DNA of 15,704 bases, from the IMG/VR virus record IMGVR_UViG_2703718817_000007. One strand, given 5' to 3'. The position numbers were made by a program, and so were the translations under genes. Source of the DNA: a virus (taxonomy: Duplodnaviria; Heunggongvirae; Uroviricota; Caudoviricetes). Positions 2,181 through 10,539 of the stretch are shown here, one piece after another. How positions within the stretch are numbered: position 1 is the first letter of the stretch; every line of letters begins with the position of its first letter. The notes beneath the pieces are model-generated. The model was not told the DNA's origin and made no database searches. It saw only the letters and a program-made list of their open reading frames with translations.

Positions 2181-3263
2181 ATGAAAAAATTAACAGTGGC
2201 AATTTCTGCTGTAGCTGCATCAGTACTGATGGCGATGTCTGCTCAGGCAGCTGAAATTTATAATAAAGACAGTAACAAGCTGGATCTATACGGGAAAGTT
2301 AATGCCAAGCACTACTTCTCCTCTAATGATGCAGATGATGGTGATACTACTTATGCCCGTCTTGGCTTCAAAGGTGAAACCCAAATCAACGATCAACTGA
2401 CTGGTTTCGGTCAGTGGGAATATGAATTCAAAGGCAACCGTGCTGAATCTCAAGGTTCTTCCAAAGACAAAACCCGTCTTGCATTTGCAGGCCTGAAATT
2501 TGGTGATTACGGCTCAATCGATTACGGCCGTAACTACGGTGTAGCATACGACATCGGTGCGTGGACTGACGTCCTGCCAGAATTCGGTGGTGATACCTGG
2601 ACCCAAACAGATGTGTTCATGACTGGTCGCACTACTGGTGTTGCAACTTATCGTAACAACGACTTCTTTGGTCTGGTCGATGGCCTGAACTTTGCTGCTC
2701 AGTATCAGGGTAAAAATGACCGCACTGACGTAACTGAAGCCAATGGTGATGGTTTCGGTTTCTCCACTACTTATGAGTATGAAGGATTCGGCGTGGGTGC
2801 AACCTATGCTAAATCAGATCGCACTGACGGTCAGGTCGCCTATGGTAAGAGCAAATTCAATGCCTCCGGCAAAAATGCGGAAGTATGGGCTGCAGGCCTG
2901 AAATATGATGCGAACAATATCTATCTGGCTACCACATATTCTGAAACTCAGAATATGACCGTTTTTGGTAATAACCATATTGCAAACAAAGCACAAAACT
3001 TTGAAGCAGTAGCACAATATCAGTTTGACTTCGGTCTGCGTCCATCTGTTGCTTACCTTCAGTCAAAAGGTAAAGACCTTGGTGTTCATGGTGACCGAGA
3101 CTTAGTCAAGTATGTCGATGTCGGTGCTACTTACTACTTTAATAAAAACATGTCCACTTTTGTTGATTACAAAATCAACTTAATTGACGATAGTAAGTTT
3201 ACCAAAACAGCTGGTATTGATACCGACGACATCGTCGCTGTAGGTCTGGTTTATCAGTTCTAA
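2181..3263 (+). CDS. nmpC: Outer-membrane general porin of the OmpC/OmpF family (NmpC / phage PA-2 Lc-like), intact, 360 aa
   Basis: ORF track 2181..3263. Signal peptide [23 protein letters not shown]|AEIYNK; porin hallmarks ([15 protein letters not shown].., Gly/Tyr-rich beta strands, C-terminal ..VAVGLVYQF). Sits between Q and the lysis genes in the opposite orientation, as nmpC does in DLP12. Preceded by a roughly 400-bp AT-rich region (1780-2180). Confidence 0.9.
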
Positions 3264-3270
3264 TCTGACT

Positions 3271-3311
3271 TACGAAAAAGATATGTTGCGGGAGGCTTTG
3301 CCTCCGCAACA
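3271..3311 (-). terminator. Candidate tR'-like intrinsic terminator for the short pR' transcript (minus strand)
   Basis: GC-rich hairpin tgttgcgggagg (3284-3295) / cctccgcaaca (3301-3311) with one bulge; on the minus strand it is followed by uaucuuuuucg (reverse complement of 3271-3283). No U-run on the plus strand. Confidence 0.45.
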
Positions 3312-3451
3312 TATAAGTGGAGCCCTCAAGCCACTTCCTTTAGAAGCACTACCTTGCTTCTTACTATATAAACCTTCTGTTATATATTACCCTTTATTTT
3401 GGGGGCGTTTCCACGCCCCATTTTTAATAACTTTTAGTAAACAATTGCATA
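3312..3451 (-). promoter_or_regulatory. Region expected to hold the late promoter pR' and the Q-utilisation (qut) site; exact -35/-10 not resolved
   Basis: Lies immediately downstream of the Q stop (3452) and upstream of the tR'-like hairpin, the arrangement known from lambda and 82. Several imperfect sigma70-like hexamers (e.g. ttgata..., tatagt on the minus strand) but none unambiguous. Confidence 0.3.
3402..3426 (+). terminator. Plus-strand intrinsic terminator, likely for the porin transcript
   Basis: Stem ggggcg (3402-3407) / cgcccc (3414-3419), loop tttcca, followed by atttttaat on the plus strand. Confidence 0.45.
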
Positions 3452-3835
3452 TCAATTAGAATTATTAGCAACGATATCCATATCTAACCGGATATCTAAT
3501 GCCATTAACATCCCTTCAATTATGCCCTCAGCCTTCTGTAACCTTTTCCCGATATAACCATCCGAGCAGCAATGCTTACTTGCCAGTGACATGAATGTCA
3601 TACCACATACATAATAATCTACTAATAAATCGTGTAAATCGCTGTTGTTCTTTTTCAGACGGGCCATGCACCCGCAAATGATCATCGCGTCATCGTCACA
3701 ACATTGCGGGCGAGATTTTACTTTTGAAGGAATTAATCCCTTAAAACCGGCGGCAATGGACGACCAGGTCACATCTTCATGATTATTAGCCGCCCACGCT
3801 CCCCAACGTTCAAGAACCATCTGAATATCACGCAT
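3452..3835 (-). CDS. Q: Late-gene antiterminator Q (phage 82 / DLP12 QuuD family), 127 aa
   Basis: ORF track 3452..3850 is the TTG-extended form; ATG at 3833-3835 follows GGAG. Product starts [24 protein letters not shown].. with Cys-rich zinc-binding core ([17 protein letters not shown]); length equals QuuD as recalled. Confidence 0.85.
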
Positions 3836-3852
3836 TAACTTTCTCCACAAAA

Positions 3853-4848
3853 TCAGGCCAGCACACCAATCGCCAGTGCGCGATCGATAAAACGAAATAT
3901 CAGCTCCAGCTGGGAGCCATACTTCTCTTCAAATGCCACGGTATCCGCATGCAGCTCGTCGTGATGCTTTCTGCACAAAGGCAACACAAAAAGGTCATGC
4001 GCTTTTGTACCCATTCCCCCCTGACCGTGGCCTATCAGGTGGTGGGGATCATCAGCAGGTTTTCCACAACATGCGCACGGCTGCGTCTTAACCCAGCGCG
4101 TGTACTTTTCATTAACCCAGCGGTGACGTTTTGGGCGTAACATAAAAGACTCCGGCGACTCCGGATCCACTTTCAGCGCCAGCACCTTTTTCGCCTTATC
4201 CTGGATGATGCTGGTGGCAGGAACCGAAGGCACAAGGTCACTTTCCCGGGTAACAGACGGCACAACAGGCTTCGGTAATCTCAGTGCCTTACGGGCTGCA
4301 CTTTCCGGTAAGGCATCCGCCAGATCATTACGAATCAGCCACCAGCACAGTTCCGGCATTGTCACAACATGACTGTCATCAAAACCGAGATCCCGACGCA
4401 CAACAGACAACACCCAGCGGGCACAGTTATCCGTTGCCATTGATTCCAGCCGTTCCGTGAACTGATCGCGCAGCTGGTTATCGCAGTGCCAGCACAGACG
4501 GATTGCGCCCGGAGCGTGTCGCATTGTTGTCATGTTCTCGCTGTGCCAGTCGGAATGAGGCCACTGGCAGCCTTTTTCACGAAGTAACCAGCTTTCAAGA
4601 CATTCCACGCCACCAGCACGACGGATCACTGCCTCATTGCGGAACACGGCCCGAACGGCAGGATCATCCGCCAGCGGTTGTGATGCCGCCGGAACGGCAC
4701 CACTGGCGAAAGATGAATAACGTTCCGGCTCAGGCTCCAGCAGGACACGCCCCTGCATAAACAAGGGCATCAGCTCTGAACCTGGTCTGAACAATACGAT
4801 CCCCATACGCGGGGCAATTTCAGGGGTCAGTAGTGCTCTCACGGTCAC
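3853..4848 (-). CDS. Phage protein with C-terminal Cys/His-rich HNH-like motif (DUF968-like by recollection); function unknown
   Basis: ORF track 3853..4848 (GTG start overlapping the upstream stop; an alternative ATG at the RMGIVLF codon exists). C-terminus [43 protein letters not shown] has paired Cys and His-His motifs. Family name is from memory, unverified. Confidence 0.5.
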
Positions 4849-4849
4849 C

Positions 4850-5665
4850 TCAATGAACGGTATCGAGCAGCTTTAACAGCTCAGGGAATCGGGATTCGAA
4901 GAAATGCGGCTGCGTCTCGCGCGGATTTGCAGGACTGGTGATGTTCTTGCCGAACATGCAGCCTTTCGCGGTCAGCGACCAGAATTTTTTGATGTTGTTA
5001 ATCGCGGTACGGCTGTATCGTTCGCGTTGTTCAACGATCCCCAGCTTCGCCATCTGGTGATATGCCTGATTAGCCGTCAGGCGGATACCATACTGCTTCA
5101 GCAGTGCACTCAGCGACAGCGTAGGGCGGCTTGAACCATCTGGCGCATCAGCAGGTGCATCAATGGCATAGATCGGCATAAGTTCAGGAAGACCAGCTAC
5201 CTTTGATAATTTCTGGTATGCACCAAGTTTCGAGGAGTTTGACAGATTTAGAGTCTTTGCTGCTGATTCAAGCAGAATGACCCCGGATTTAATTTTGTCG
5301 GATGTGGTTTCTTCTGGTGATGAATTATGAAGCGCATCAAAAGTACGTATCACTTTTAAGCTGAATGCCGGGCTGATCCACATTGCATATGCATAGACCA
5401 GCTCTTTACAGACATACGTCCCACCATTGCGCCCCTGAATGGTGATGACAGGAATACTACGGGAATCTCCCGTAGTTTCTTCTTCCAATAATTCCACAAG
5501 AGCCTTCGTTTCAGGACGACGCATAAACTCGTGAACTTCCAGCGAACGGGAGGAGCGATTCTCACCAGCGGCAAGAAGAGCTGCTTTCTGAAGGTCGTTA
5601 AGACAGTAGTTAGATTCGAAGTACTGGCGCACAGAAACGCCATCAATTACAAGCAACTGATTCAT
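4850..5665 (-). CDS. KilA-N domain protein (phage antirepressor/Bro-like architecture), 271 aa
   Basis: ORF track 4850..5677 is the GTG-extended form; ATG at 5663-5665 follows GGAGAAA. N-terminal 100 aa resemble the KilA-N fold (MNQLLVIDGVSVRQ.., ..TYVCKELVYAYAMWISPAFSLKVIRTF); C-terminal half is a separate domain. A consensus LexA box lies just upstream. Confidence 0.7.
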   Translation of the reverse strand: MNQLLVIDGVSVRQYFESNYCLNDLQKAALLAAGENRSSRSLEVHEFMRRPETKALVELLEEETTGDSRSIPVITIQGRNGGTYVCKELVYAYAMWISPAFSLKVIRTFDALHNSSPEETTSDKIKSGVILLESAAKTLNLSNSSKLGAYQKLSKVAGLPELMPIYAIDAPADAPDGSSRPTLSLSALLKQYGIRLTANQAYHQMAKLGIVEQRERYSRTAINNIKKFWSLTAKGCMFGKNITSPANPRETQPHFFESRFPELLKLLDTVH

Positions 5666-5762
5666 TGGTTTCTCCACAAATTTTTATCCACGAGCGGGAC
5701 TGCACTCCCTTTTCGTTGATGCAGGATGAACTTACTGCGATTTTTAATAGTTATCAAGGATA

Positions 5763-5782
5763 CACTGTTCATAAATACAGTA
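5763..5782. promoter_or_regulatory. Consensus-like LexA (SOS) box in the rusA / KilA-N intergenic region
   Basis: cACTGTtcataaatACAGta at 5763-5782: CTGT-N8-ACAG with an AT-rich spacer, close to the TACTG(TA)5CAGTA consensus. On the minus strand it sits immediately upstream of a candidate promoter (TTGATA-17-TAAGTT) for the KilA-N gene. Confidence 0.55.
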
Positions 5783-5827
5783 TCTTTAACGAGGTAATAC
5801 CCAAATTTAGGGTGTTGCTCAATTCCG

Positions 5828-6223
5828 TTACCGAGTTGCTAATTTGCAACTCGCTTTTTCGTACTTACTGATAGTGATCTCGACCTTCCCCTCCGGGATA
5901 ACCGGTCCCCACTCCACCAGCATTCTTTTCACCTGACTGTCGTCTTCCCACACACCCGCGTGGGTCAGGGCGTCAAACAGCGCCTTGTTATAGTTGTCCA
6001 GATCGCGGATCCGGTTATCCGGAGGAAACAACACGATCTCCACTGAAGCAGGTGCCGACGTTGGTTTCGGCAGACGACGTAACTGCTCAACTATTGCTGC
6101 ACACGCCGCGCTCTGGAATTTTCGCCCCGCCGCGCTTATCAGGCTCTTACCAGCAAACGCCCCTTTGTTGGGGTGTCGCCAGTACGTGTTCACGCTGGGC
6201 GGAAAAGGTAGGATCAGCTTCAT
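5828..6223 (-). CDS. rusA: RusA-family Holliday junction resolvase, 131 aa
   Basis: ORF track 5828..6223. MKLILPFPPSVNTYWRH.. with the RusA acidic catalytic region (..DNRIRDLDNYNKALFDALTHAGVWEDDSQV). ATG overlaps the upstream gene stop (ATGA). Confidence 0.85.
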   Translation of the reverse strand: MKLILPFPPSVNTYWRHPNKGAFAGKSLISAAGRKFQSAACAAIVEQLRRLPKPTSAPASVEIVLFPPDNRIRDLDNYNKALFDALTHAGVWEDDSQVKRMLVEWGPVIPEGKVEITISKYEKASCKLATR

Positions 6224-6546
6224 ACTTTCAGGCCCCTCTCATGTAACCAGTGGGCTGCACGCAGCCTGGCGTTTTCCTCACCGGCAAGCAGTGAGCGGAT
6301 AATCCCGACCGCCTCGCTGTCGTCGTCCTTCACCACGGTATGAAGCGTGATCCCCCGGGCCACACCACGCTTTATCGTGATGACGCCTTTTTTCTCCAGT
6401 GCGCGAAGATGCTCCACCGCTGCATTCACTGAACGGTATCCCAGCATGGTTGCCACCTCCTGATTGGTTGGCGGGAAGCCACGTTCTTTCTGATAAGAAA
6501 TCAGCATATCCAGCACCTGCTGCTGGCATTGAGTTAACGTCGTCAT
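6220..6546 (-). CDS. Small protein consisting of a LexA-type N-terminal winged-helix DNA-binding domain only, no S24 peptidase domain, 108 aa
   Basis: ORF track 6220..6546. LTQCQQQVLDMLISYQKERGFPPTNQEVATMLGYRSVNAAVEHLRALEKKGVITIKRGVARGITL parallels the E. coli LexA N-terminus ([55 protein letters not shown]) as recalled. Only about 35 aa follow. ATGA overlaps at both ends. Confidence 0.7.
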   Translation of the reverse strand: MTTLTQCQQQVLDMLISYQKERGFPPTNQEVATMLGYRSVNAAVEHLRALEKKGVITIKRGVARGITLHTVVKDDDSEAVGIIRSLLAGEENARLRAAHWLHERGLKV

Positions 6547-7196
6547 GCCGCCATCTCCCTGACCAGTTTTTCCGCCTGCTGGCGAACCTGCGCCAGAAAC
6601 GCCTCACCACATGCCTCAAGTTCATCGCGCCCGATGTAGCTGATTGCCGGTCCCTTCCAGGTCTTGTCGAAAACAGCAATAGCACCAGCGAAGAAAGCGC
6701 CTGTCGGCACCTGCTTCTCATCTTTCGGGATAAACCAGGCAGGCAGTTCAAAACCAATACGCCCGCGAATAAAAGCAATATGATCTGCATCTTCCGGCCA
6801 CCACACTTCGCTGGTGGCAGCTTTGATCAGGAAAACATAGCGCCCACCTTTATCACGCATGGCACTGGCATGCTTCATGATGTAACGCATGCCTGTGATG
6901 TATTGCCCCTCATGCTGACTGGCGCGGCTGTATGGGGGATTACCAAAGGCAGCACCTTTAAGCTCCGCAAGACGTTCTGACCAGTCATGCGCCAGCGCGT
7001 TGTCTTCCGCCGTGTAATACGCAGCACATTTGGTGTTATCACCGTCAGTGAACAGATCCAGAACAAACGGGCCAAACAGGGTGTTAATTCCCCAGAAAAT
7101 GTTGTCCGGCGTGCGCCACTGATCGCCCACTTCCTTCAGTTCATGGGCTGGTTTGTTCCGCAGTTCCACCAGCGCCTGGCAATATTTATTACTCAT
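6543..7196 (-). CDS. Phage DNA N6-adenine methyltransferase (Dam-like, YfdM-type), 217 aa
   Basis: ORF track 6543..7229 is the GTG-extended form; ATG at 7194-7196 overlaps the upstream TAA (TAATG). Contains the NPPY catalytic motif (AAFGNPPYS) of amino-methyltransferases. Confidence 0.8.
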   Translation of the reverse strand: MSNKYCQALVELRNKPAHELKEVGDQWRTPDNIFWGINTLFGPFVLDLFTDGDNTKCAAYYTAEDNALAHDWSERLAELKGAAFGNPPYSRASQHEGQYITGMRYIMKHASAMRDKGGRYVFLIKAATSEVWWPEDADHIAFIRGRIGFELPAWFIPKDEKQVPTGAFFAGAIAVFDKTWKGPAISYIGRDELEACGEAFLAQVRQQAEKLVREMAA

Positions 7197-7684
7197 TAAG
7201 CCCCCACGTAATTCCCTGACAGATACCACTCTTCACCCGATGCAGCGCGCTTGCTGCTTTTCCGTAAACACCGCTCACGACGCGCCAGAAAATTGTTTCG
7301 TTCTGGTTGGGAGTGGCTTTCACGGAATGCCGCCATCCACACGGTTGCAGCACGACGGTATAAGCCCCTGGACTCCAGTTCTTCAGCCTGGCGGGTCAGG
7401 CACAAAATTACCCGTGGATCGTTAGTGCCGACATAGAAATTGCGCGCAGGTCTGGTTTCACGAACTGGTTGTGGTTCCGGCTCCTGCGCTCTCTCAGTCA
7501 GGCGCGGGAAATGTCTGCGTGTATCCCCTTCACAACGGTGAGCCACACGCCCACTCTGACGTAACTTGCTTGCTGACTGCAGAACGCGCTGCCGTGAGTA
7601 GCCTGCAAAAGCATCCGCAATGTCTCCGGAAGTACACCCCGGATGGGCTTCAATGAATTTCTGAACTTCATTCAAAAGACTCAT
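7196..7684 (-). CDS. PerC-like / YfdN-like putative transcriptional activator, 162 aa
   Basis: ORF track 7196..7684. C-terminal ..EELESRGLYRRAATVWMAAFRESHSQPERNNFLARRERCLRKS resembles the PerC-family signature as recalled; length close to K-12 YfdN (164 aa). SD AGGGGG before the ATG. Confidence 0.5.
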   Translation of the reverse strand: MSLLNEVQKFIEAHPGCTSGDIADAFAGYSRQRVLQSASKLRQSGRVAHRCEGDTRRHFPRLTERAQEPEPQPVRETRPARNFYVGTNDPRVILCLTRQAEELESRGLYRRAATVWMAAFRESHSQPERNNFLARRERCLRKSSKRAASGEEWYLSGNYVGA

Positions 7685-7686
7685 GA

Positions 7687-8628
7687 TTACCCCCTGAATC
7701 CTGCCGGGATCTGGCTGTAGTCCACGTTGTCGTAACTGGCTTTGAAGTACGCGTCTTCGCGTTTTTCGGTGTACGTGCTTACGGACGGCGATAAGCGCAG
7801 GGAAAGCTCATCCCATTTTTCCCGCAGCTTCGACGGGCTGAGCACGTTACGGCACCAGAACGGATCGCGGCTGACGCGGCTGTACATCTCGCAGATTTGT
7901 TTGTGAGTACGACCATCCTGCACACACATCAGGCGAATTTCGTTTGCCCAGGCTGTCCAGTTCGGTTCTTTGGGACGAACCACCTCGCCGTCACATTCGG
8001 CAGCCTGCTCGTACAGGGCGATGATTTTTTTCCAGAGCCACTGTGCGCAGGTCAAATCATCCTGCGTCCCCCACTGGCGCTTTTTAGGGCTGAATACAAC
8101 CGCATCAGGATGGCGAGTTAAAAAATCCTGTTCAGCCGTCTGCGTGTCCGGTTGCGAAGCGTCCGGACGAGAAGGTTTTTTATCTGACGGATCATGTTTT
8201 GATTTTACTGACGGATCCCCGCCAGATTCTGACGGGTGAAAACCCGCTTTTTTGCCAGATTTCGACGCATCAAATTTTGACGGGTCAGATTTTGATGCGT
8301 CAGATTTTGACGGGTCAGAATCTGACAGTTGAGAAAATGCCGCAGCCTGAAGCTTCGCAACGTTAAGCTGATAAACATTCGACGCATTGCGGTTACCCTG
8401 GCGACGCGCCTTACGCGTTAACCAGCCTTCTGCTTCCAGCCGTGCGATAGCCGTTCTGACTGTACTCATCCCCGCGCCAATCTGGCGGGCAATGGTTTCA
8501 ATCGATGGCCAGCACACACCTTCGTCATTACTGAAATCAGCCAGGCGGGCCATAATTGCCACGCTGGATAATTTCATGCCTGACGCTGCGCAACCATCCC
8601 ATACATAGCCGGTTAATTTAGTGCTCAT
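7687..8628 (-). CDS. Replication initiator (lambda O-like organisation: N-terminal winged-helix domain, repeat-encoded linker, C-terminal domain), 313 aa
   Basis: ORF track 7687..8628. N-terminus (..SSVAIMARLADFSNDEGVCWPSIETIARQIGAGMSTVRTAIARLEAEGWL..) is a typical replication-protein HTH; the middle is a low-complexity linker (SDSDPSKSDASKSDPSKFDASKSGKK..) encoded by tandem DNA repeats; the position after cro/cII matches O. Confidence 0.7.
   Translation of the reverse strand: MSTKLTGYVWDGCAASGMKLSSVAIMARLADFSNDEGVCWPSIETIARQIGAGMSTVRTAIARLEAEGWLTRKARRQGNRNASNVYQLNVAKLQAAAFSQLSDSDPSKSDASKSDPSKFDASKSGKKAGFHPSESGGDPSVKSKHDPSDKKPSRPDASQPDTQTAEQDFLTRHPDAVVFSPKKRQWGTQDDLTCAQWLWKKIIALYEQAAECDGEVVRPKEPNWTAWANEIRLMCVQDGRTHKQICEMYSRVSRDPFWCRNVLSPSKLREKWDELSLRLSPSVSTYTEKREDAYFKASYDNVDYSQIPAGFRG
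8181..8330. repeat. Iteron-like tandem repeats (about 8 copies, 15-bp period) inside the replication initiator gene; candidate origin
   Basis: Copies at 8223-8237 cagattctgacgggt, 8256-8270 cagatttcgacgcat, 8271-8285 caaattttgacgggt, 8286-8300 cagattttgatgcgt, 8301-8315 cagattttgacgggt, 8316-8330 cagaatctgacagtt, plus degenerate copies at 8181-8217 next to an AT-rich patch (8170-8215). Confidence 0.55.
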
Positions 8629-8976
8629 GACCGACCTCTATTTCCCTGAATTTACGACGAAACTGTTCGAGCGGACTGAAGCACTCATGCTCATAGCCTT
8701 CGCGGAGGTAGATAACCCGTTGTGTTTCCGGTTCCCAACGAATGACTCTGACGGGCACTCCGTAGTGATCTTTGAACCAGCGGTTAACTTGTCGCAAAGG
8801 ACTGTCTCCTTCTGCCGGTTGAAATCCCCCACAGCCCACTCTGCAAAGCTGTGGGTTACAATTTCCCTGTCACCTGGTACATTCACTGCATAGCAATATT
8901 CCACCTTCGCTTTTCCACCCGGTACAGGAAGCGCAATCAGTTGCGAGCGACGGTAGTGTGTTGTTAAACTGTTCAT
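8618..8976 (-). CDS. Hypothetical small gene between the cII-position gene and the replication gene; apparently split across two frames (possible -1 frameshift, 1-nt indel, or two overlapping ORFs)
   Basis: Frame A (8638..8976) starts with an ATG overlapping the upstream stop (ATGA at 8973-8976) but its C-terminal half is Ser/Thr-rich and low complexity. Frame B (8618..8839) has globular-looking composition (..[49 protein letters not shown]..) and its stop overlaps the replication gene start. The frames meet at a C5/G5 run (8826-8830). Confidence 0.4.
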
Positions 8977-9864: not shown

Positions 9865-10539
9865 ATGAAAACAATCCATGACATCCGGCGGTCTAACGCC
9901 AGAAAACTGAGAGATGGTGTTGGCGGGAATTCTTCCTTTGCCACTATGATTGATCGCGAGCCAACCCAGACCAGCAGGTTTATGGGAGATGGTGCTACTA
10001 AAAATATCGGTGACAGCATGGCACGACACATCGAAAAATGTTTCGACCTGCCTGTCGGATGGCTCGATCAAGAACACCAGACAACGAACATCACAAAAAA
10101 ACCTGATGTTTCAATCACTAATAAACAAATCACATTAGTCCCTGTCATATCATGGGTACAGGCCGGAGCATGGAAAGAAGTTGGATATTCTGAGGTTGAT
10201 TTGAGCACAGCAGAAACGTATCCCTGCCCTGTACCCTGTGGGGAAATGACTTATATCTTGCGGGTGATAGGTGATTCAATGATTGATGAGTACCGCCCGG
10301 GAGACATGATTTTTGTCGATCCTGAAGTACCTGCCTGCCACGGTGACGACGTTATTGCATTGATGCACGATACAGGTGAAACCACCTTCAAAAGGTTGAT
10401 AGAAGATGGGACACAGCGTTATCTCAAAGCGTTAAACCCAAACTGGCCTGAGCCTTACATTAAGATCAACGGTAATTGCTCTATAATTGGAACTGTGATT
10501 TTCTCAGGAAAACCAAGAAGATACAAAATCAAAGCCTAA
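9865..10539 (+). CDS. cI: CI-type prophage repressor (N-terminal HTH plus C-terminal LexA-like S24 peptidase domain), 224 aa
   Basis: ORF track 9865..10539, ATG start. C-terminal domain has GDSM (Ser nucleophile), ..TFKRLI.. (Lys) and VQAG linker motifs as in lambda cI/LexA. Confidence 0.85.
   Translation: MKTIHDIRRSNARKLRDGVGGNSSFATMIDREPTQTSRFMGDGATKNIGDSMARHIEKCFDLPVGWLDQEHQTTNITKKPDVSITNKQITLVPVISWVQAGAWKEVGYSEVDLSTAETYPCPVPCGEMTYILRVIGDSMIDEYRPGDMIFVDPEVPACHGDDVIALMHDTGETTFKRLIEDGTQRYLKALNPNWPEPYIKINGNCSIIGTVIFSGKPRRYKIKA

Follow-up and report, generated by a model that had tools for sequence, protein, structure and literature searches.

Can a phage carry a LexA-like repressor that the SOS response of its host is unable to remove? 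The question is raised by a gene in a stretch of Caudoviricetes DNA of 15,704 nucleotides (IMG/VR record IMGVR_UViG_2703718817_000007), referred to below as the window. The window is a lambda-like prophage, and over positions 5600-7300 (1701 bp) it matches Escherichia phage PhiR49_1, found in ECOR13, at 100% identity. The gene (6220..6546, minus strand, stop codon included) encodes a protein of 108 amino acids with a LexA DNA-binding domain only, for which we use our own name, LexL. An earlier note, made from the sequence of the window alone, had proposed that such a protein could occupy SOS boxes, including one close to the gene, without being cleavable. LexL is here confirmed to be a LexA-type winged helix-turn-helix protein without a peptidase domain.

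Domain content, fold and conservation of LexL

The open reading frame starts with ATG, and its product is MTTLTQCQQQVLDMLISYQKERGFPPTNQEVATMLGYRSVNAAVEHLRALEKKGVITIKRGVARGITLHTVVKDDDSEAVGIIRSLLAGEENARLRAAHWLHERGLKV, with the C-terminus ...ERGLKV. It matches Pfam LexA_DNA_bind (PF01726) significantly, at E=2.9e-19 and 69 bits against a cut-off of 23.7, and residues 1-65 cover the profile completely (1-65/65). PHROG 362 ("transcriptional repressor") is matched at E=2.4e-59 by LexL 1-108 (profile 1-106/106). Among solved structures searched with phmmer against the PDB, the best relatives are E. coli LexA structures, and the LexA DNA-binding domain 1lea is matched at E=7.5e-16 over residues 2-69. 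However, a Pfam search with the whole protein gives no match to Peptidase_S24, and the NCBIfam lexA equivalog TIGR00498 reaches 71 bits, under its cut-off of 110.95, with just profile positions 1-91 of 203 matched. The catalytic Ser119 and Lys156 of LexA have no equivalents in LexL, which ends at residue 108. LexL is a member of PF01726 and PHROG 362 but not a LexA, since the peptidase domain, the catalytic residues and an equivalog-level score are all absent. Having no peptidase domain, it is therefore unable to cleave itself.

In a profile comparison with hhalign, LexL 1-92 is aligned with LexA 1-88 at 99.6% probability, and the last 16 residues have no LexA counterpart. The homology includes the cleavage site, as LLA-GEE of LexL pairs with VAA-GEP of LexA both in the sequence alignment and in hhalign; this LexL segment is predicted to form a helix, and LexL provides no catalytic domain in cis. 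Codons 70-108 (6223..6339, minus strand) hold a hinge, the LLAGEE cleavage-site relic and a family-specific two-helix tail, assigned from hhalign, the AlphaFold helices and conservation. An origin by internal deletion of lexA was suggested by the homologue in phage mEp390, where WLKKQG at the C-terminus resembles RLKKQG around Lys156 of LexA; it was rejected, as hhalign finds no match past LexA residue 88.

The AlphaFold model was built from a 30-sequence family alignment and has a mean predicted local distance difference test (pLDDT) of 82.8. It contains helices at residues 6-22, 28-35 and 40-52 and wing strands at 56-58 and 66-68, followed by helices at 75-88 and 93-103. A low-confidence linker separates the winged helix-turn-helix (residues 1-68; 6343..6546, minus strand) from the two tail helices. 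Structurally, residues 1-68 superpose in Foldseek on LexA from the LexA-DNA crystal 3jso_B with a root mean square deviation of 1.0 Å over 68 columns and 50% identity. Both the likeness of roughly the first 70 residues to the LexA N-terminal domain and the absence of the S24 peptidase domain, which the earlier note had read from the translation, are borne out by the profile searches, and the predicted structure adopts the LexA-type fold.

The recognition-helix segment of LexL is SVNAAVEHL (codons 39-47; 6406..6432, minus strand), assigned from alignments. In LexA, the helix 3 residues reported to contact DNA are Ser39, Asn41, Ala42, Glu44 and Glu45 (PMC3091678), and Asn41 with the thymine-methyl pocket is treated in PMC5999292. 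LexL has S39, N41, A42, V44 and E45, i.e., four of the five contact residues are identical and E44 is replaced by V. In the alignments, K52-K53-G54 of LexL stands at the place of the LexA motif R52-K53-G54 (PMC8607333) and the wing residues R64-G65 are retained. LexL of the E. coli lineage looks built for reading the host CTGT half-site, because it keeps LexA contact residues that are changed in gp6, the truncated LexA homologue of phage GIL01 discussed below.

In the family alignment the tail residues A79, A93, A97, L101 and G105 are conserved. According to the model the tail forms a helical hairpin; its hydrophobic pattern is conserved, as is the tail itself across genera. LexA dimerises through its C-terminal domain, and LexA(1-87) joined to a foreign dimerisation domain represses at SOS operators. 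We propose the two-helix tail as a candidate dimerisation element, which may stand in for LexA's C-terminal domain.

The LexL gene is functional and under strong purifying selection, not a relic, since 76 distinct alleles have no internal stop and a low ratio of nonsynonymous to synonymous polymorphism (pN/pS), 0.096 overall. Residues 1-69 have a ratio of 0.028 and the tail has one of 0.245, and the recognition helix never varies among the 76 alleles. Copies of the gene, up to four per genome, occur in 2233 of 5426 complete E. coli genomes (41%). At 94-100% identity LexL is found as orf42 of SfV and in SfII, SfIV, mEp460, the cdtI phage, phage 1720a-02 and many Stx2a- and Stx2c-converting phages. 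Relatives at 40-65% identity, found in prophages of Citrobacter, Salmonella, Cronobacter, Klebsiella, Enterobacter, Kosakonia, Atlantibacter and Hafnia, retain the C-terminal tail. A scan of the genome contigs returned almost exclusively host lexA genes.

The protein is already annotated as a database object, so its value lies in the putative function alone. Its PGAP name is "LexA family transcriptional regulator", while depositors have used labels as far apart as "unknown" and "LexA DNA binding domain protein". Our literature search found no functional study of this enterobacterial family, and PADLOC places LexL in no known defence system. Phage 1720a-02 has been described as a "bully phage", and its effect on a co-resident prophage was attributed to Cro.

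The operon and its cassettes

LexL lies within a tight series of genes on the minus strand. In the direction of transcription, these are the replication gene O (7687-8628), a PerC/YfdN-like gene (7196-7684), a Dam-type N6-adenine methyltransferase (6543..7196; Pfam Dam E=9.6e-46, start as in the PhiR49_1 annotation), LexL, the Holliday-junction resolvase RusA (5828..6223; Pfam RusA E=6.4e-15), a KilA-N domain gene (4850..5665; Pfam KilA-N E=1.3e-15, PHROG 129), a DUF968/HNH gene (3853-4848) and Q (3452-3850), with O, the PerC-like gene, DUF968/HNH and Q assigned by Pfam as well. The neighbours Dam, RusA and KilA-N named in the earlier note are therefore the right ones. The KilA-N start at ATG 5665 follows GGAGA and agrees with the PhiR49_1 annotation; the gene is a possible SOS-inducible antirepressor or kil-type gene. 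Between rusA and kilA-N there is a 150 bp spacer, which holds an SOS box.

The stop of Dam overlaps the start of LexL at 6543-6546, and the stop of LexL overlaps the start of RusA at 6220-6223. Both ATGA overlaps had been claimed before and can be read directly from the sequence. No consensus sigma-70 promoter was found in 5500-7400. One weak candidate, TTGAGC-17-TATTAC at 5822-5794, would put the SOS box at about +6 to +25, but it is not established. Most simply, the LexL gene belongs to a rightward operon of the delayed-early phase, which runs from the replication genes through the PerC-like gene, Dam, LexL and RusA to Q, given the tight same-strand series, the overlaps at both ends and the absence of a consensus promoter. 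As a separate observation, the final rusA codons contain a G+C-rich hairpin at 5832-5853 (CGAGTTGC..GCAACTCG), and a T-run follows it on the plus strand only, antisense to the operon. This hairpin could halt transcription converging from the opposite direction.

The comparison with close relatives uses 80 IMG/VR contigs (L088-L167) in which LexL is 97-100% identical. RusA is directly downstream of LexL in all 80, and KilA-N follows in 79. Dam is more variable: between the PerC-like gene and LexL it is present or absent in about a third of the loci, and LexL occurs without Dam in ~26 of the 80. Conversely, LexL is precisely missing in seven relatives (L381, L398, L403, L416, L423, L449 and L458), in which the Dam stop overlaps the RusA start. 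RusA also follows LexL in mEp390 and in the Salmonella and Atlantibacter relatives, while in the Klebsiella lineage LexL occurs without RusA. The genes of this nin region thus behave as cassettes that are swapped at ATGA stop/start overlaps, and LexL is optional.

In most lineages a methyltransferase occupies the slot just upstream of LexL, but these enzymes belong to non-homologous families. It is a Dam of PF05869 in the window and in Cronobacter, and a MethyltransfD12 of PF02086, once fused to PF00145, in Salmonella and Atlantibacter (L172-L174, L374-L375).

A possible LexA mimic on SOS boxes

The best hypothesis for LexL is a RecA-insensitive LexA mimic that acts on SOS boxes, because four of the five LexA contact residues are kept. 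We hold it only tentatively, since binding, dimerisation and timing are all inferred; directly established for LexL are domain content, fold, contact-residue conservation, operon position, purifying selection and prevalence. On this view LexL descends from a gammaproteobacterial LexA and would act as a regulator that binds DNA sequence-specifically, with LexA residues 1 to ~88 kept and the peptidase/dimerisation domain replaced by the short two-helix tail. It would be produced from the delayed-early operon, hence presumably mainly in lytic growth. Dimerised by its tail, it could then sit on CTGT-N8-ACAG operators of both the host chromosome and the phage DNA. Activated RecA would be unable to trigger self-cleavage, the Ser/Lys peptidase domain being absent, and LexL may in this way keep or restore repression of SOS-controlled promoters once the host LexA has been destroyed.

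Compared with the host LexA (1lea, 1jhh, 3jso), the winged helix-turn-helix at the N-terminus of LexL is homologous over LexA 1-88. However, LexL has a two-helix C-terminal tail that LexA does not have, and its gene is located in a prophage nin region, while lexA is an autoregulated chromosomal gene. The LexA 1-84 cleavage fragment, the non-cleavable LexA(Ind-) mutants and the fusions of LexA(1-87) to a dimerisation domain are laboratory constructs or transient breakdown products. LexL covers LexA 1-88 almost exactly; should its tail dimerise, it would be what the engineered fusions are in the laboratory, and would act like a LexA that cannot be cleaved. In the natural 1-84 fragment a degradation signal is exposed at the C-terminus; LexL ends in ...ERGLKV instead.

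The closest characterised parallel is gp6 of the Bacillus thuringiensis tectivirus GIL01, a truncated LexA homologue which is expressed from the early operon and turns on the late promoter P3 (Fornelos et al. 2018, PMC6182141). Its recognition helix is SHKTAHRYL, in which Lys38 is essential, and its target is GaCACA..TGTGtC (PMC6182141). Both gp6 and LexL are LexA DNA-binding domains of temperate phages without the peptidase domain. However, gp6 has 66 amino acids and consists of the winged helix-turn-helix only, without the tail of LexL, and where Lys38 of gp6 aligns, the SVNAAVEHL helix of LexL has Asn41. From this host-type helix, host-type operators are predicted. BLASTP gives no alignment between LexL and gp6, which are 36% identical only in a forced alignment, and Bacillus phages are absent among the 61 tblastn matches to LexL at E<=1e-5. 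LexL, itself uncharacterised, is of the same broad kind as gp6 but not a close relative.

Among the viral structure predictions of BFVD are many further LexA_DNA_bind-only proteins of 65-150 amino acids, which come from Caudovirales, Tectiviridae and Mycobacterium phage Wildcat. They have the same domain without S24, but not the conserved tail of the enterobacterial family. There are also tandem proteins with two LexA_DNA_bind domains and no S24 match (P0155, P0161, P0165, P0133, P0153 and P0157). Four of them have 161-222 amino acids, P0153 has 352, and P0157, with 329, is fused to a PTPS domain. The tandem proteins, too, are without the enterobacterial tail. Apart from gp6, no characterised example was found among the short or tandem phage proteins.

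A candidate target in the window is the strong LexA (SOS) box CACTGTTCATAAATACAGTA at 5763-5782 (no strand assigned), the sole perfect CTGT-N8-ACAG of the window, which is not specific to LexL. It scores 22.3 in a matrix of our own, made from 20 E. coli SOS boxes, which themselves score 12.4-27.3, and none of 200 shuffles of the window reaches 22.3. The 3' end of the LexL gene is 438 bp away from the box, and the likely KilA-N ATG follows 98 bp downstream of it. The SOS box that the earlier note placed before the KilA-N gene, near LexL, is thus real. Its specific tie to LexL is weak. The reading of LexL as a phage-borne LexA domain, packed between Dam and RusA, that lacks the peptidase and is not self-cleavable is supported, and an action on SOS boxes gains some plausibility from the conserved contact residues. 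CTGT/ACAG pairs at other spacings were also searched in the window; of the 42 arrangements tested, only ACAG-N14-CTGT is above expectation, with three pairs against 0.23 expected from shuffles. These are found at 8831, 9116 and 12513, all within open reading frames, and are probably due to chance.

Strong SOS boxes are frequent in phages with LexL, as seen in the window, in SfV and mEp390, in the lineages of Klebsiella and Enterobacter and in 23 of 37 close relatives. In a first comparison with a lysozyme-anchored control, an SOS box was found in 23/37 LexL-positive and 0/30 LexL-negative loci (p=1e-8). The LexL-negative set of this control is however nearly clonal. In a second, lineage-matched control anchored on YfdQ, an SOS box is present in 19/52 loci with LexL and in 4/10 without it (p=1.0). 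We therefore conclude that the enrichment reflects the phage backbone and not LexL, and the association is rejected as evidence for a target.

This loss of the association is one of several observations that weigh against a LexA mimic on SOS boxes or against the specific link to the box at 5763-5782. The latter box, in the rusA/kilA-N spacer, is found in only ~11 of the 80 close relatives, and in SfV and Stx2a_1447 rusA and kilA-N are ~20 bp apart, without the box. There is no SOS box near LexL in mEp390, where the single box precedes dinI, and none within 4 kb of LexL in the Salmonella and Cronobacter lineages. Of 37 contigs that carry an SOS box in a phage methyltransferase gene, described below, 27 have LexL and 10 lack it, and four gene orders with Dam and RusA but no LexL match still have an SOS box in the scanned region. 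Early read-through would presumably reach kilA-N, downstream in the same orientation, whatever occupies the box. At the level of the protein, one contact residue, E44, is V in LexL, and positions 42, 44 and 45 differ between the lineages of the family, with position 45 occupied by D, L, I, T or G. The specificity therefore need not be the host SOS box across the whole family. The dimerisation of LexL is a proposal based on the predicted tail, and gp6, the sole characterised phage protein with a LexA domain only, acts as an activator rather than a repressor. Under the mimic model, it is the host SOS boxes that would have to serve as targets in all lineages, and phage boxes would be additional ones.

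The scans of the relatives also revealed SOS-type genes and boxes that deserve mention in their own right. Divergent LexL homologues are accompanied by SOS-type accessory genes, i.e., dinI with a consensus LexA box and, in mEp390, a UmuD-like gene. In mEp390 (L007) the SOS-type genes are at 20396-21308 and the box at 20706-20725. In the Klebsiella lineage (L168-L170) dinI and its consensus box are at 3385-3658, the box being located before dinI and 600 bp upstream of LexL, and the Enterobacter lineage has two boxes.

A near-consensus SOS box, TACTGTTTTTATATACAGTA (or with C for T at position 12; score 25.8-27.3), is located within the coding region of a cI-like repressor of 230 amino acids with helix-turn-helix and S24 domains. 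It covers about codons 70-76, in the inter-domain linker, and is present in ~27 of the loci L088-L167, e.g., at 3139-3158 in L103 (in the frame 2675..3367, minus strand) and at 5546-5565 in L089. The cI gene of the window itself (9865-10539) has no such internal box. LexA on this box could block transcription of the repressor or control an internal promoter. To our knowledge, an SOS box inside a cI-like repressor gene has not been described earlier.

Another strong SOS box, TACTGTAAAAATAAACAGTG (score 22.9), overlaps codons 3-9 of an N6/N4 DNA methyltransferase of 350 amino acids with a DPPY motif, encoded between Q and the holin gene. It is found at 34170-34189 in SfV (L005), within orf48 (34162-35214), and at 5453-5472 in L105, and the exact 20-mer is present in at least 120 IMG/VR contigs. 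A Salmonella relative has a degenerate version of these codons (L172 8291, score 10.6). The position of the box suggests that the methyltransferase may be LexA-controlled.

Other explanations and what they would mean

The example of gp6 raises the possibility that LexL is a phage-specific regulator. It would bind a phage site that is non-SOS or only SOS-like, and it would activate or time phage genes such as Q, the late genes or the antirepressor-type gene downstream of rusA, leaving the host SOS regulon alone. The truncated gp6 does activate P3, many short LexA-domain-only proteins occur in unrelated phages, and the contact positions 42, 44 and 45 vary within the family. In five genera, the LexL gene is always just upstream of the block of RusA, antirepressor-type gene, DUF968 and Q. 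However, the contact residues in the E. coli lineage are those of the host LexA and invariant, unlike in gp6, and we find no conserved alternative palindrome; the CTGT/ACAG pairs with other spacings are few and within open reading frames. We consider such a regulator possible but doubtful. The same gene order could instead point to an accessory of recombination, replication or methylation, a DNA-binding protein that guides or modulates RusA or the upstream methyltransferase on phage DNA, for which the small DNA-binding NinH beside Rap in the lambda nin region offers a parallel. The presence of RusA downstream, in 80/80 close relatives as well as in mEp390, Salmonella and Atlantibacter, agrees with this, as does a methyltransferase upstream even when it is of a non-homologous family (Dam or MethyltransfD12). 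But the neighbours evidently do not need LexL, since Dam is joined directly to RusA without it in seven loci, and LexL is without Dam in ~26/80 loci and without RusA in the Klebsiella lineage. This pattern fits the ordinary cassette mosaicism of nin regions, and makes an accessory role improbable.

Two further explanations carry even less weight. LexA homology runs through the Ala84-Gly85 region and 'AGE' is common in the family, so LLA-GEE might present S24 peptidases (host LexA, UmuD, phage repressors), or else activated RecA, with a pseudo-substrate or decoy and in this way modulate their cleavage. Such interference at the protein level is very unlikely. The segment is predicted to be helical, whereas a strand-loop docks into the LexA active site, its pN/pS is 0.245 against 0.028 in the DNA-binding part, and the strongly conserved DNA-binding domain would be left without a role. 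Finally, LexL resembles a truncated lexA, and some genomes have it fused to Dam or RusA by a frameshift, as might be expected for a decaying, functionless remnant of a captured lexA gene. This is effectively refuted by the selection analysis (76 alleles without internal stop, pN/pS 0.096), and the tail is conserved in at least eight enterobacterial genera at 40-60% identity and the gene is carried by 41% of complete E. coli genomes.

The LexL gene is among the commonest accessory genes of E. coli prophages, and it is carried by Stx2a- and Stx2c-converting phages, the cdtI phage and the Shigella phages SfII, SfIV and SfV. If LexL has a phage target of its own, as gp6 does, it would be an ordinary phage regulator. 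If, on the other hand, the preferred LexA mimic is correct, prophages of ~40% of E. coli strains, Stx2-converting and Shigella serotype-converting phages among them, would carry a natural uncleavable mimic of LexA that re-silences the host SOS regulon and the LexA-controlled genes of rival prophages after the phage has started its own lytic growth. We regard this far-reaching version as rather unlikely; if true, it would have effects on SOS mutagenesis, on how co-resident prophages are induced and on toxin release. A LexL that occupies SOS boxes and is immune to RecA-stimulated cleavage would let the virus put a brake on the SOS response, and such a brake would bear on prophage cross-induction, on the release of Shiga toxin after SOS-inducing antibiotics and on stress-induced mutagenesis.

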